IMG/VR virus record: IMGVR_UViG_3300009494_000372
DNA: 64,000 nt
Reading direction: 5' to 3' (one strand)
Source of the DNA: a virus
The notes under the pieces were generated by a model that saw nothing but the letters and a program-made list of their open reading frames with translations, ran no database searches and was not told the origin of the DNA. The first letter of the stretch is position 1. Each line of letters opens with the position of its first letter. Below, piece by piece: positions 5,454-19,582 of the stretch. The position numbers were made by a program, and so were the translations under genes.

Positions 5454-5544
5454 GGTGCTTTGAAGACGTGATCAGGGCAGATCTACCTACAATTCAGGCA
5501 GGTATCATGCAGGGGCGCATCGGTCCGGTGCGCCGCTCTGCACC
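5454..5544 (-). ncRNA. tRNA-derived structured element, copy 1
   Basis: Homologous to 18759-18846 and 19495-19582; conserved hairpins; lies 10 nt after the stop of 5555-6217. Confidence 0.5.
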
Positions 5545-5554
5545 ATATTTCTCC

Positions 5555-6217
5555 TTATATCAGAGTAGCCCGCACATCGCCGAATGGAATCAGGATGTTT
5601 CTGTTCTTCTCAAACCGTGTGGCGTAATACTCCCCGTATAGCCATTCGTCGGAGTTTTCGAGGAACATAGCTTCATATCGCTTGCTTTTCTCCATCATCG
5701 CCTTGAGTGCCGTAGAAAAATCGTCGCCTTCCAGGAGTCTTATCGGGAATGTGTTCCAGACGTCGATGATGAACTGCCGGTATGGAGCCTCGTCCATGTC
5801 AAACGCAACGTAACAGGGCGCCCTGGACCCAAGATACGCTTTTACTCCGGTTTCTTCTGCCGTTCGCCCGAGTGACGCTGCGGTCCAGCACGCAGTCGCA
5901 TGACAGATGACGTTGTTGAGAACGGTCACGTTGCTGGTGTCGATCATTCCCTGTTTGGATGCGCCGCATCCCGGGGGGATTTGTCCGCATATTTTGTCGC
6001 TTACTCCGTGCCCGAAATACGAAAACAACACCGTATCTCTCGCCGCAAGCTTCTCAAGTACCGGTGCGTACTCGTGTATGGACATTCTGTCCGGGATCCA
6101 GTGCAGCTTCACATCAGGATACGTGCGCCTGACGATCCAGTACAGCACACGTCCAGCCCGCCCGCTGACTTCGGTTGGTTTGTTGCTGACGGGCGCGGAA
6201 ACAACGACGGTTGCCAT
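5555..6217 (-). CDS. Hypothetical protein, possibly CHAT/caspase-like fold
   Basis: 220-aa ORF; SYFGHG and ICHATACWT resemble a His/Cys peptidase dyad; weak. Confidence 0.5.
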   Translation of the reverse strand: MATVVVSAPVSNKPTEVSGRAGRVLYWIVRRTYPDVKLHWIPDRMSIHEYAPVLEKLAARDTVLFSYFGHGVSDKICGQIPPGCGASKQGMIDTSNVTVLNNVICHATACWTAASLGRTAEETGVKAYLGSRAPCYVAFDMDEAPYRQFIIDVWNTFPIRLLEGDDFSTALKAMMEKSKRYEAMFLENSDEWLYGEYYATRFEKNRNILIPFGDVRATLI

Positions 6218-6226
6218 GACAGTACC

Positions 6227-6502
6227 TCAGAGCGTGGCACGCGTCAGCGACATTGCTTTCTTGACCGGCTTGCCAGTCTTCGTGTCGATCATACGACCGT
6301 CCGGCGTGACCTGCACATCCCGGATCACGTACAGGAACTCTCGTGGACGAATCTCCAGGCGGTACGCGCCAGCGGGAACGGACATCGTGTAATTCCCGTC
6401 TTCATCAGTTACGGCTACGATCTTCTTATCCAGGTAGATCGGGGTTTGCTCGATACCGGAAAGTGTCGCTTCGTCAATTAGTTTGCCTGTAACGGTAACC
6501 AT
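6227..6502 (-). CDS. Carboxypeptidase-regulatory-like (Ig/prealbumin) small domain protein
   Basis: VTVTGKLID..TDEDGNYTMSVPAGAYRL pattern. Confidence 0.6.
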   Translation of the reverse strand: MVTVTGKLIDEATLSGIEQTPIYLDKKIVAVTDEDGNYTMSVPAGAYRLEIRPREFLYVIRDVQVTPDGRMIDTKTGKPVKKAMSLTRATL

Positions 6503-6548
6503 GGTATCACCGATGGTTTTTTGACATCATACACATAAAAGACTTACC

Positions 6549-7436
6549 ATGGTCATCGCCTGTTTCAGCACAAAACCCGGGATTCACATCGGCACTGGGG
6601 TGACGTTTCCGAGTGGGGCTGAACTGTGCCTGGATGGTCCGGTTGATGCTGCCCGGTATCATACCGGCACTAAAATATTCTGCGCTGTGACCTATCCACC
6701 GGGCGTATCCGGACCAAACATCAAGACATACTTTGGCGGGGAACTTAAAAAAACATATTACGGTGATCCGGGTAGAAGCGGGCAGTTCGTGTGGTGGATA
6801 AGTGATGGATGGACCGGTGTTGTTCGCTTCGATTTCTGTGATGGTGCCGATGTTTTATGTTCAAAATCGACCGTATGGACCGTTGATGTGGTGCCACCCG
6901 TTCCTGAAGTCGTTCCTGAAGTACCGCCGGTTCCTGAAGCACCACCTGTAGTGCCACCGGTTGAACCGCCTGTAGCACCGCCTGTACCCGTGAGGGCGAC
7001 CATCGTCCGGATCGGCGGTCTGCAGGAATCAGCAAAAGCCAGTGAGCGCATGGTCGCTACTATTGTCGTTAAGAACACAGGCGCAGTCACGCTCCTATTC
7101 TCTGTCAAGCTGCTCGATGCAGATACCGGAAGGAGGTACGGAGGGTTCGCATATACACCGTACATCCGACCGGGTGAAGAGGCTGCTGTCAGCATCAGCC
7201 TGACGATGCCTGCCGGCACAGACCCGCTGAACCTTGTGGCAGAGGTGTATCGCGGAACCGTGCTCCAGGACTCGATGGCGGCATCGGTTGCACGCAAGAT
7301 ACCGGAGCCTGAAGTCGAAGAGGCGTGCTACATCAAGTTTGACATCCCGTTGCTTGACCAGCTGCCAGGGATCCCGTGCGAGTGGTGGGGTGGACTGCCG
7401 CTACTCCCGGGATTCAAGAAGACGAAGGAACCTTGA
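6549..7436 (+). CDS. Putative virion/surface protein with Pro/Val/Glu-rich linker and CARDB-like Ig domain
   Basis: VPPVPEVVPEVPPVPEAPPVVPPVEPP linker; IVVKNTG..F.V motif. Confidence 0.6.
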   Translation: MVIACFSTKPGIHIGTGVTFPSGAELCLDGPVDAARYHTGTKIFCAVTYPPGVSGPNIKTYFGGELKKTYYGDPGRSGQFVWWISDGWTGVVRFDFCDGADVLCSKSTVWTVDVVPPVPEVVPEVPPVPEAPPVVPPVEPPVAPPVPVRATIVRIGGLQESAKASERMVATIVVKNTGAVTLLFSVKLLDADTGRRYGGFAYTPYIRPGEEAAVSISLTMPAGTDPLNLVAEVYRGTVLQDSMAASVARKIPEPEVEEACYIKFDIPLLDQLPGIPCEWWGGLPLLPGFKKTKEP

Positions 7437-7494
7437 GACTCGCGAAAAATATTAATACGTTCAGAAACAACAAGCTGACAAGGAGGAAAAACGT

Positions 7495-8307
7495 TTGCCT
7501 GACGAAGTATCCGGATGCGAAACTTTTGAAGTATCGCCCGTTCCACTGATCATGAATTTTCCTCGTCTCGGCAGGTACACATTGCCAGCCGGCATTACTA
7601 AGATCGATGTTAAGACGGGGCAGGTGACCATACCAGGCGTATCCGCTCCGGTGGAGATGTACTCGGCTGCACGGATGGATACCTGCAAGAGCTTTTTGAT
7701 TTTTACTGATGCCCAGATCGAACTTCGTGCGTATCTCGCGGGTGCGCTTGTGTACACAAGCTCCGTATTCCCGCTGTGGACCAGGTCAAAGATCATAGAG
7801 TTCGACTACATTGAGATCTCGACGGATTATTCGGTCTCATTCTACATCGCGATGTCGAACACCGCTGACGCGATGGCATCGATCGATCCGATCACAAACA
7901 TTGCAGCCCGGCATATCGCACCCACGAACCCTAATACGCAGTTTACGAACGCTCTTGCCACGGACGCAACCGAGAATGAAAACCTGTCAGTTACTATCAG
8001 CAAACCGTACATAACAAACATAGCGATCATGTCTGAGCAGAATCTCAATTACAGGCTGGCGTTTTACTCGAAAGACAGTTTTGGTGCGCTTGAATACATC
8101 GGCAACATCGATTTCGATCTTCCGACCGAGGGATTTCCATTGAACAGCCTGTACTGCATGAACGTCCATGACATAACTTTTGACTACATTGATGAGGATA
8201 ACAGCGATGAAATTCATATACAGCTCGTGAACCTTGATGCGGTCGCCAAACTCCCGGGAGCTGCCGGAGCGGTCCAGTTCACGGTGATATACGGGGAGAA
8301 TCTATGA
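7495..8307 (+). CDS. Putative structural protein; N-terminal domain paralogous to 21144-21779
   Basis: LIMNFPRLGRYTLPAG..AARMDTCKS..SVFPLWTR aligns with LIINYPQTGRKILPVG..AARAIETCRS..TIFPEWTR. Confidence 0.6.
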   Translation: MPDEVSGCETFEVSPVPLIMNFPRLGRYTLPAGITKIDVKTGQVTIPGVSAPVEMYSAARMDTCKSFLIFTDAQIELRAYLAGALVYTSSVFPLWTRSKIIEFDYIEISTDYSVSFYIAMSNTADAMASIDPITNIAARHIAPTNPNTQFTNALATDATENENLSVTISKPYITNIAIMSEQNLNYRLAFYSKDSFGALEYIGNIDFDLPTEGFPLNSLYCMNVHDITFDYIDEDNSDEIHIQLVNLDAVAKLPGAAGAVQFTVIYGENL

Positions 8308-18752: not shown

Positions 18753-18758
18753 TTTGCG

Positions 18759-18846
18759 ATCTTTGAACAGCATGATCTGGGAAGGTCAATCTGCAGTTCA
18801 AGCAGGTGTTATGCGTGGCGCATCAGTCCGGTGCGCCGCTCCGCAC
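18759..18846 (-). ncRNA. tRNA-derived structured element, copy 3
   Basis: GGCGCA/TGCGCC hairpin and CTGC-TTGAACT-GCAG loop; begins 1 nt after the TAG at 18848. Confidence 0.5.
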
Positions 18847-18981
18847 TCTATTTCTCTCTTCTGACGATGATGTGATCCGACGGGCAGCCATGTAGGTTTG
18901 AGACAAAGTGCCTGCAGGTCATGCAGTAGTCCTGCACACCAAGGTGGTCTTTCGCAAACGTCCTGGTCACCCAATCAGATC

Positions 18982-19356
18982 TCATTGTAACGTGTATCTC
19001 TTTCGGTCCTCGAACTCCTGCTTTTTCGCTGTGTTCCAGCTCGATACTATCTGCAGGTAGCCTGTGACGCGGGACATGATGTCTGTTGCGTGGTTCATGC
19101 AGTCGGGGCACATGTAGTGTCCGCAGACCGGGCATCTTTGGGTGCCGCCGGTCGTTCTCTTGCAGATCCCTCTTATCTTTGCGTAGAGGTGCACCGGGCA
19201 TTTTAGGACATCGGAGTTGATGTCTTCCTGTATCTCCTCCCACTCACTCGTCGCTATCATATCCGCTTTCCAGCCCTCACAGACGAAAAGGAACTCGTGT
19301 GGCGGGAGTTGGGTCACATCAGGCGGTGTTTTTTCGGATGGCATGTTGGTAGTCAA
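18982..19356 (-). CDS. Stand-alone NrdD-like C-terminal zinc-ribbon/glycyl-radical domain
   Basis: CPVCG..CPDC..MSRVTGYL..WNTAKKQEFEDRK. Confidence 0.7.
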   Translation of the reverse strand: MTTNMPSEKTPPDVTQLPPHEFLFVCEGWKADMIATSEWEEIQEDINSDVLKCPVHLYAKIRGICKRTTGGTQRCPVCGHYMCPDCMNHATDIMSRVTGYLQIVSSWNTAKKQEFEDRKRYTLQ

Positions 19357-19427
19357 TCAGATCTCATAGGTCGGCTCCAGCCCGGTCTGTTCTATTGCCT
19401 CTTCCGCCAACGGTTTTGCTATGGCGA

Positions 19428-19453
19428 GCGCATTACCGCTCTGCCACCCGGGC
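19428..19453 (-). pseudogene. 5' fragment (acceptor strand plus D arm) of the 5329-5414 tRNA, with a homologous promoter
   Basis: 25/26 nt identical to 5389-5414; upstream GCAACTACC.TTTCAT motif shared; the sequence then diverges. Confidence 0.7.
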
Positions 19454-19494
19454 ATGAAATGGTAGTTGCGTAAGCATCCTTAAATGGTTTGGCA

Positions 19495-19582
19495 CCTTTT
19501 AACGGTATGATCTGGGGATCAACCTGCAATTCAGGTAGGAATCGTGCAGTGGCGCATCAGTCGGGTGCGCCGCTCTGCACCC
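19495..19582 (-). ncRNA. tRNA-derived structured element, copy 2
   Basis: GTGCAG..GGCGCA/TGCGCC..CTGCAC hairpin and CTGAATT loop; just after the TGA of 19591-19965. Confidence 0.5.

Follow-up and report, generated by a model that had tools for sequence, protein, structure and literature searches.

The stretch of DNA considered here, 64,000 nucleotides (nt) of IMG/VR virus record IMGVR_UViG_3300009494_000372 and called the window below, is part of an 84.7-kilobase (kb) contig, 20 kb of which lie outside it. The contig comes from an archaeal mobile element, which is probably a virus, of marine or cold-seep sediment; there are sister contigs of 54-87 kb, which we read in parts, and some of these are binned with a Methanosarcinales metagenome-assembled genome (MAG; G001). 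The window carries four tRNAs (found by ARAGORN and Rfam) and, on its minus strand, three copies of a structured element of about 95 nt each, which lie just after stop codons and are related to the tRNA with anticodon GAA. These copies and that tRNA are the following, R1 being the covariance model that we used to score them:

5449..5544, minus strand: copy 1, made up of a long hairpin, an anticodon-like hairpin, a GATC variable-arm hairpin and an unconserved tail (R1, 107 bits; blastn; fold)
18753..18847, minus strand: copy 2, directly 3' of the stop of a 45-amino-acid (aa) zinc-finger-like gene at 18848-18985 (blastn; R1, 101.5 bits)
19488..19581, minus strand: copy 3, 8-9 nt past the stop of a 124-aa gene (blastn; R1, 109 bits)
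5328..5414, minus strand: intact class-II tRNA with anticodon GAA, the parent-type gene of the elements (ARAGORN, Rfam; 56 bits)

Make-up and ancestry of the elements

The original prediction, which was drawn from the letters of the window, had placed three related minus-strand copies at these sites, and blastn agrees, with pairwise identities of 80-86% (E 1e-15 to 2e-19). A 15-nt core, GCAGAGCGGCGCACC, has three occurrences in the window at no more than one mismatch and six at no more than three, the latter against 1.6 expected and reached by none of 100 shuffles. The copies had been said to follow TAA, TAG and TGA stops by 1-10 nt; the measured distances are 10 nt from the TAA at 5555-5557, 0-1 nt from the TAG at 18848-18850 and 8-9 nt from the TGA at 19591-19593, and the three genes upstream are mutually unrelated.

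We refer to the outer and inner helices of the long hairpin as H1 and H2, and to the anticodon-like and variable-arm stems as H3 and H4. All three copies, and their minimum-energy folds, show the long hairpin that had been proposed, GTGC(A)G..GGCGCA-9 nt-TGCGCC..C(T)GCA(C/T); it is GC-rich and comprises 12-13 base pairs (bp). In copy 1, H1 joins GTGCAG to CTGCAT, H2 joins GGCGCA to TGCGCC around a loop of 9 nt, and the anticodon-like loop reads CTGAATT. The 7-nt YTGAAYT loop of the anticodon-like arm is as described, but in two of the three copies its stem contains one mismatch, and the window copies have a pyrimidine at position 37. As described, too, are the GATC-type hairpin and the T-loop relic, TTCAAAG or TTAAAAG; this relic has no stem in window-type copies and is missing altogether from the copies in three relatives, L102, L106 and L112. 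Conserved complementary ends that would make an acceptor stem occur in no copy; both strands of the acceptor stem and the T stem have been lost.

The claimed kinship with the neighbouring tRNA is borne out by a blastn match to 5328-5414 of 85% over 33 nt (E 8.5e-5) and by a score of 25.7 bits for R1 on the anticodon and variable arms of tRNA(GAA). The element corresponds to tRNA positions ~5-26, followed by a duplicated strand, the anticodon arm, the variable arm and the TTCAAAG relic. Its D loop has received an 11-nt insertion, while the letters of the D stem and loop are retained, and the duplication, of about 11 nt, takes in the anticodon stem's 5' strand together with half the loop. H2 is formed by the insertion paired with the native 3' strand of the D stem and positions 26-28, and H1 by the duplicated strand paired with tRNA positions 6-13. 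Because the insertion and the duplication both pair with native D-region letters, the D arm has been expanded and not, as was first thought, replaced. These correspondences in sequence show that the elements are descendants of the mobile element's own class-II tRNA(GAA) or of a close paralogue. ARAGORN finds the intact tRNAs and none of the elements, and an Rfam scan at E<=10 gives neither a tRNA nor any other family match at the three element sites, in keeping with the earlier remark that no matching named family was known.

The tRNA at 5328-5414 has a long variable arm and G73. Homologues are found in L102 (4476-4561; 74 of 87 nt identical to the window gene) and in L112 (2850-2939), with compensatory changes in the D and anticodon stems among them. 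Since it is thus conserved in distant sister elements, we regard tRNA(GAA) as a maintained gene and not an accident. A further homologue, of about 86%, lies on another contig of the source sample; the MAG G001, which is incomplete, contains no host tRNA matching either the element or tRNA(GAA).

The putative promoter block and the relatives of the element

The homology extends about 45 nt beyond the 3' end of the element, through CCAAA(G/C) and TATATAA/ATTTAA and then a conserved spacer, as far as the tRNA's first base. We infer from the architecture and spacing of archaeal promoters that this block is the promoter of the tRNA, with a putative B recognition element (BRE) and TATA box; in the window CAAA plus TATATAA ends 26 nt before the first tRNA base, and L102 and L112 are alike in this. 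The unit as a whole is then a portable intergenic module of about 135 nt, running from stop codon through hairpins to promoter, with the pseudo-tRNA as its 5' two-thirds and the putative promoter as its 3' third. [quoted passage not shown] The further parts of the module in the window are:

5415..5453, minus strand: putative BRE/TATA promoter block, with CCAAAG TATATAA at 5441-5453 and its end at the tRNA's first base (sequence conservation)
19428..19487, minus strand: putative promoter block of site 3 (ATTTAA box) and first 26 nt of the tRNA (blastn)
17737..17775, minus strand: orphan putative promoter block plus nt 1-9 of the tRNA, lacking an upstream element (sequence match)
5283..5310, minus strand: relic of the original 3' end of a 220-aa gene (FGDVRATLV and stop), a duplicate of about 24 nt of 5555-5582

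What follows the promoter block differs from site to site. At site 1 it is the intact tRNA(GAA), and in the sister L066 the same gene end (FGDVRATLV and stop) comes directly after the 220-aa gene; the block of element, promoter and tRNA, being flanked by the ~24-nt duplicate, looks as if it had been inserted into the end of that gene. At site 2 the homology breaks off just past TATATAA (18745-18751). Comparison with L078 places about 0.97 kb (17776-18744), carrying two plus-strand genes (17758-18174 and 18291-18752), between the TATA box of copy 2 and the remainder of its promoter, at present the orphan block (17737-17775); L118 is arranged differently again, and the history of the site may include more than one event. 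At site 3 the 26 nt of tRNA continue in frame into the final 22 codons of a membrane-protein gene, making a chimeric open reading frame (ORF) of 32 codons at 19357-19455 (minus strand), the ATG of which overlaps the first base of the tRNA; the 43-aa membrane-protein gene is intact in L063 (4015-4146).

Copies in relatives were collected by protein look-ups, one GTDB pattern match and R1. The family comprises the three window copies and at least nine more in related elements, with no more than three per genome: the window, L112 and the contigs of G001 have three each. All 12 copies sit 0-13 nt past the stop of a co-directional gene, and the upstream genes are unrelated (the 220-aa and 124-aa genes, an NrdD-like gene, small zinc-finger-like genes and DegT). 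A CAAA plus TATA-like box follows 10 of the 12, the exceptions being L118 and L066. The relatives' copies are:

L060: one copy after a 54-aa gene, followed by the promoter and a CRISPR repeat between an intact acceptor stem and T arm
L078: one copy after the same small gene as at window site 2, followed by the promoter and two repeat units
L118: one copy after that same small gene, truncated, with its 3' part lost and H2 mutated
L102: one copy after an NrdD-like gene, followed by the promoter and an intact tRNA(GAA)
L106: one copy after another small gene, followed by the promoter and a small zinc-ribbon gene
L112: three copies after various genes, the TGA stop lying inside the repeated block in all three, one copy being just upstream of the tRNA
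L066: a hybrid after DegT, with the long hairpin present and the T arm and 3' acceptor strand kept

The copies in L078 and L118 are positional homologues of window copy 2, and the L066 hybrid is an evolutionary intermediate. R1 also matches the anticodon and variable arms of the relatives' real tRNAs. No copy occurs at the homologous places in the sister loci L057, L061, L062, L063, L065 and L067, and copies are found where gene order differs between relatives, that is, at synteny breakpoints. A search of 150 other Methanosarcinales genomes with R1 gave no element match, and the family is therefore considered to belong to this mobile-element lineage.

DNA-pattern searches gave 22 matches in IMG/VR, all of them to unrelated coding DNA, and 34 in JGI metagenomes, with no relative of the element among them; a protein search of IMG/VR for relatives found no match. 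One of the JGI matches is an archaeal tRNA-Lys with a similar D-loop hairpin. This unrelated tRNA-Lys(TTT), at 97-215 (plus strand) of L044 and adjoining an rpoH-like gene, was missed by ARAGORN and folds as a cloverleaf; it has a second insertion besides the D-loop hairpin, which shares 20 specified letters with the H2 region of the elements (GAGCGGCGCACC-N5-GATGCGCC). The likeness may be due to chance, or may hint at a tRNA intron as the source of the D-loop insertion.

The DNA contigs of the sample offer no informative joint at the three element sites. Assembly contigs also break at window 15300-15420, where AGAAAG/CTTTCT units make up a long inverted repeat of low complexity that has many sub-threshold matches to microRNA models in Rfam. 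Between copies 3 and 2, at 18982-19344 (minus strand), lies a stand-alone protein of 120 aa that matches solely the C-terminal part of the anaerobic ribonucleotide reductase NrdD (PF13597); it has more than 120 similarly small homologues in metagenomes and may be a "spare part" glycyl-radical domain.

Conservation, pairing and competing explanations

When the window copies are set against the distant ones of L102 and L106, the 5' strand of H1 (7/7) and the stems of H2 (12/12) are fully kept, while the H2 loop agrees at 6-7 of 9 positions, the variable arm at 11-12 of 17 and the tail at 8 of 15; the functional tRNA, across the same distance, retains 74 of 87 positions, and the neighbouring NrdD-like proteins of these lineages are only 66-69% identical. 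In a model-guided alignment of seven copies, 92.5% of cells pair, compared with 85.7% in shuffles (none of 500 reaching the observed value) and at most 47% with slid partners. Apparent double changes in H1 in this alignment were left out of the count, since they are artefacts that arose when L102 and L106 were fitted to the model. In a hand alignment of ten copies, 85.5% of cells pair. Here the H1 core pairs in 40 of 40 cells, and its changes are from G-C to G-U alone on the sense strand (five G.U, no A.C), which fits a helix acting as RNA read in the direction of the gene. H2 pairs in 59 of 60 cells with zero covariation, the anticodon-like stem in 74% and the variable-arm stem in 82%. The compensatory changes lie in these last two hairpins: UA to CG at pair 46-58 in L060 and L106, CG to UA in L106 and CG to AU in L112A at the innermost variable-arm pair, and CG to UA in the anticodon stem of L112A; only 15 of 5000 shuffles reach the observed pairing of H3 and H4 together. 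The original prediction is supported in part, in that the elements are tRNA-derived and form a family whose hairpins are kept in related genomes, with some compensatory changes. Taken together, the pairing and the drift of the adjoining tail argue that at least the long hairpin is under purifying selection and would act as RNA in the sense of the gene.

Since relatives keep its hairpins, the element is probably a working RNA signal, and our preferred interpretation, to which we would give a probability of roughly 0.45, is that of a selected tRNA-derived structure in the 3' untranslated region (UTR), which moves with the promoter of the tRNA and marks the junctions of gene cassettes. There is no conserved promoter upstream of the elements and no T-tract between stop codon and element, and for these reasons we take the element to be transcribed as the 3' UTR of the gene before it. 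As RNA, a stable hairpin of 12-13 bp could serve as a barrier to decay in the 3'-to-5' direction or as a mark to which a protein binds, and would in this way define the end of the upstream message; where a tRNA lies downstream, this role could follow an RNase P cut at that tRNA. Transcription would then start anew from the attached promoter, the product being a tRNA, a solitary CRISPR repeat or the message of a small gene. The invariance of the H2 sequence suggests that the hairpin may have a sequence-specific partner.

Several points weigh against this interpretation. The shuffle tests were made on few copies, all related, and ignore phylogeny, and with so small a sample the pairing evidence is suggestive and does not amount to proof. 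The anticodon-like stem, at 74% paired, has many C.A mismatches, and the H2 mutations in L112B and L118 point to some decay under way. Conservation of the H2 sequence without covariation would equally fit a site read at the DNA level or gene conversion between copies. Finally, we know of no established mechanism by which hairpins protect 3' ends in archaea.

It is possible, though on the whole unlikely, that the elements are neutral relics, dead tandem duplicates of the tRNA hitch-hiking with a useful promoter, whose copies are young or have been homogenised by gene conversion. The lack of an acceptor stem and T arm and the pyrimidine at position 37 would then need no further explanation; nor would the mismatched anticodon-like stem of most copies, the further decay in L112B and in L118 (which is without its 3' part), or the finding that the L078 copy is closer to window copy 1 than to its positional homologue copy 2, which suggests exchange. 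Such relics would not, however, be expected to keep a near-invariant long hairpin beside a 15-nt tail that retains 8 of 15 positions, between lineages as far apart as the NrdD-like proteins indicate, or to acquire compensatory changes in two hairpins, or to persist in compact genomes that otherwise shed intergenic DNA fast (L057 has no spacer at all at the homologous site). Less probable in our view is a DNA-level site, in which GGCGCA-N9-TGCGCC, as double- or single-stranded DNA, is bound by a regulator of the promoter or by a recombinase or transposase that moves the module. That the H2 sequence is kept without covariation around a variable 9-nt spacer would agree with this, as would the location of copies at synteny breakpoints, the ~24-nt duplication of the target gene's end around the block at site 1, and right-hand junctions that vary within the tRNA (after nt 9, nt 26 or the full length). 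Yet for the 33 largest ORFs of the window, no integrase, recombinase or Y1 transposase is among the 25 of 42 matched Pfam families that were listed. With 59-66 nt between it and the TATA box downstream, the repeat is far off for an archaeal regulator, and its half-sites are about 15 bp apart centre to centre and hence not on one face of the helix. The restriction of H1 variation to G.U on the sense strand also favours RNA.

The original prediction had thought of t-elements, that is, a tRNA-like fold cut by RNase P and/or tRNase Z so as to part the upstream mRNA from the sequence after it. What RNase P and tRNase Z recognise in a tRNA is the portion with acceptor stem and T arm, and as the elements lack this part, and do not conserve even the T-loop relic in the distant copies, we now find the idea very improbable. 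Beyond the tRNA ancestry, it draws on the length of the long hairpin, 12-13 bp being that of a stacked acceptor/T-arm helix, and on a T-loop-like GTTCGA in the long-hairpin loop of L102, L106 and L112; but the window-type copies have GACTGA there, so that the T-loop-like letters are not kept, the long hairpin derives by homology from the D arm, and Rfam gives no tRNA match even at E<=10. A cut at the foot of H1 would, besides, leave the upstream mRNA unprotected at its stop codon. Hardly to be credited are two further roles, as a mimic of the anticodon arm that soaks up an anticodon nuclease, or as an attachment site (attP) for integration into a host tRNA. A decoy would be in accord with the YTGAA half of the loop being kept in most copies, were it not that L106 has AAA in place of GAA and that the anticodon-like stem is the least well kept of the helices; nor do we know of a nuclease. 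As for attP, truncated tRNA-like sites of this kind are known in archaeal viruses (HF2; PMC8707807). The three copies per genome, however, differ by 14-20%, the listed Pfam families include no adjacent integrase, and the 150 other Methanosarcinales genomes contain no matching tRNA or element. In general, too, an attP usually matches the 3' part of a tRNA, which is what the elements have lost.

Other kinds of RNA or product were considered and set aside. A K-turn or K-loop for L7Ae fits the rule in the window copies (stem-CCG-GA-CU-GA-stem), but GT replaces the first GA in L102, L106 and L112. A box C/D guide RNA would need a pair of C and D boxes that not all copies have, the internal loop is too small for the pseudouridylation pocket of an H/ACA guide RNA, a D-loop bulge-helix-bulge intron would show two 3-nt bulges 4 bp apart, which are absent, and no complementary leader and trailer of a split or permuted tRNA were found. 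An ATG follows a Shine-Dalgarno-like AAGGAG in copy 1 and in L060, but opens a different frame in each, so that the element encodes no small conserved peptide.

Solitary CRISPR repeats and the comparison with known systems

The putative promoter of tRNA(GAA) also stands before solitary CRISPR repeats, of which the window has one after the orphan block:

17706..17735, minus strand: solitary CRISPR repeat after the orphan putative promoter block (Rfam CRISPR-DR13, 31.8 bits, below the gathering score of 37)

The repeat, GTTATAATCAGACCGTTKCGGGATTGAAAT, is preceded by the putative tRNA promoter and nt 1-9 of the tRNA in the window (17706-17775, minus strand), in L078 (2285-2425, minus strand) and in L060 (10612-10718, plus strand), and is of the same type as an array beside cas6 in another contig of the MAG (G001:C112). 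In L078 there are two repeat units, and a 7-bp stem closes each of them. In L060 the repeat has taken the place of the D, anticodon and variable arms of the tRNA, and the acceptor stem and T arm are intact, also in the fold; the unit could be a natural "tRNA scaffold" for an RNA of the kind known as RNA anti-CRISPRs (Racr), which are solitary CRISPR repeat units (PMC10651486). As with Racr (PMC10651486), the repeat stands alone and immediately 3' of a promoter in a viral genome, a likeness that concerns these neighbouring 30-nt units and not the element itself; the difference is that here the promoter and first 9 nt come from a tRNA gene, and that in L060 an intact acceptor stem and T arm enclose the repeat. 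The same CRISPR repeat occurs alone a second time in the window, at 27748-27776 (plus strand), immediately beyond where the second TnpB element ends on the right; 34 nt come after it, and a repeated GGCGACACCCGGAG motif flanks it. The surrounding 27704-27822 (plus strand) folds strongly (z-score -4.7).

Among known systems, the intergenic repeats of halovirus HF2 (29-58 bp, AT-rich, each with a promoter for the next transcription unit; PMC8707807) resemble the module in being intergenic, present in several copies per archaeal virus genome, kept in relatives and promoter-bearing. They have neither tRNA ancestry nor conserved GC-rich hairpins, whereas two-thirds of the present module is a structured pseudo-tRNA in what would be the 3' UTR of the upstream gene. 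The attP of the HF2 group is likewise a truncated and non-functional tRNA-like sequence in an archaeal virus; but it is a single copy beside the integrase, and what it matches is a host tRNA's terminal 57 nt (PMC8707807), while here there are several diverged copies, without the 3' part of the tRNA and without an adjacent integrase among the Pfam families listed. With the t-elements of plant mitochondria, mitochondrial tRNA punctuation and ends of the mascRNA type, the module would share a tRNA-derived fold at the 3' end of an mRNA; all of these keep the features of the acceptor stem and T arm on which RNase P and tRNase Z depend, and it is the region of the D, anticodon and variable arms that is kept here instead.

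Two bacterial systems may be compared as well. The PeSL (promoter-early stem-loop) modules of T4-type phages have bacterial sigma-70 promoters and are not tRNA-derived. Like the present module they are short combinations of promoter and hairpin that stand beside small gene cassettes and, in hypervariable regions, mark the junctions of recombination; unlike it they have their parts in a different order, and here the promoter motif is of archaeal type and the module comes from a tRNA. REP/BIME elements, which are chromosomal and owe their mobility to RAYT transposases, are credited with stabilising the mRNA upstream; like the elements, they are multi-copy, GC-rich, imperfect palindromes directly past stop codons, but they are neither derived from tRNA nor coupled to a promoter, as the elements are. 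Neither RAYT nor another Y1 transposase is among the 25 of 42 matched Pfam families listed for the 33 largest ORFs, and the TnpB genes of the window have no TnpA partner there. The family thus differs from each of its nearest analogues in at least one defining respect.

One may go further and picture a new kind of "punctuation" of archaeal virus genomes, a portable cassette derived from a tRNA gene in which a hairpin of minihelix length, bound by a tRNA-processing or tRNA-binding factor, would end the upstream message, and the promoter would launch small RNAs, including tRNA-scaffolded solitary CRISPR repeats that act as anti-CRISPR RNAs, while recombination would spread the cassette and shuffle gene cassettes between related viruses. 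Such a scheme, taken as a whole, is speculative, and we think it improbable.

Little is known of transcript ends and gene insulation in archaeal viruses, and a tRNA-derived structure fixed between stop codons and promoters provides a concrete sequence with which 3'-end formation may be tested in elements associated with Methanosarcinales. Should the element turn out to be neutral, it would still be useful as a marker of recombination junctions in this lineage. In the module one sees a tRNA gene, along with its promoter, put to new use as parts that would be regulatory, and the apparent takeover of the tRNA promoter by solitary CRISPR repeats would tie the debris of tRNA genes to the conflicts of viruses with their hosts and with one another.

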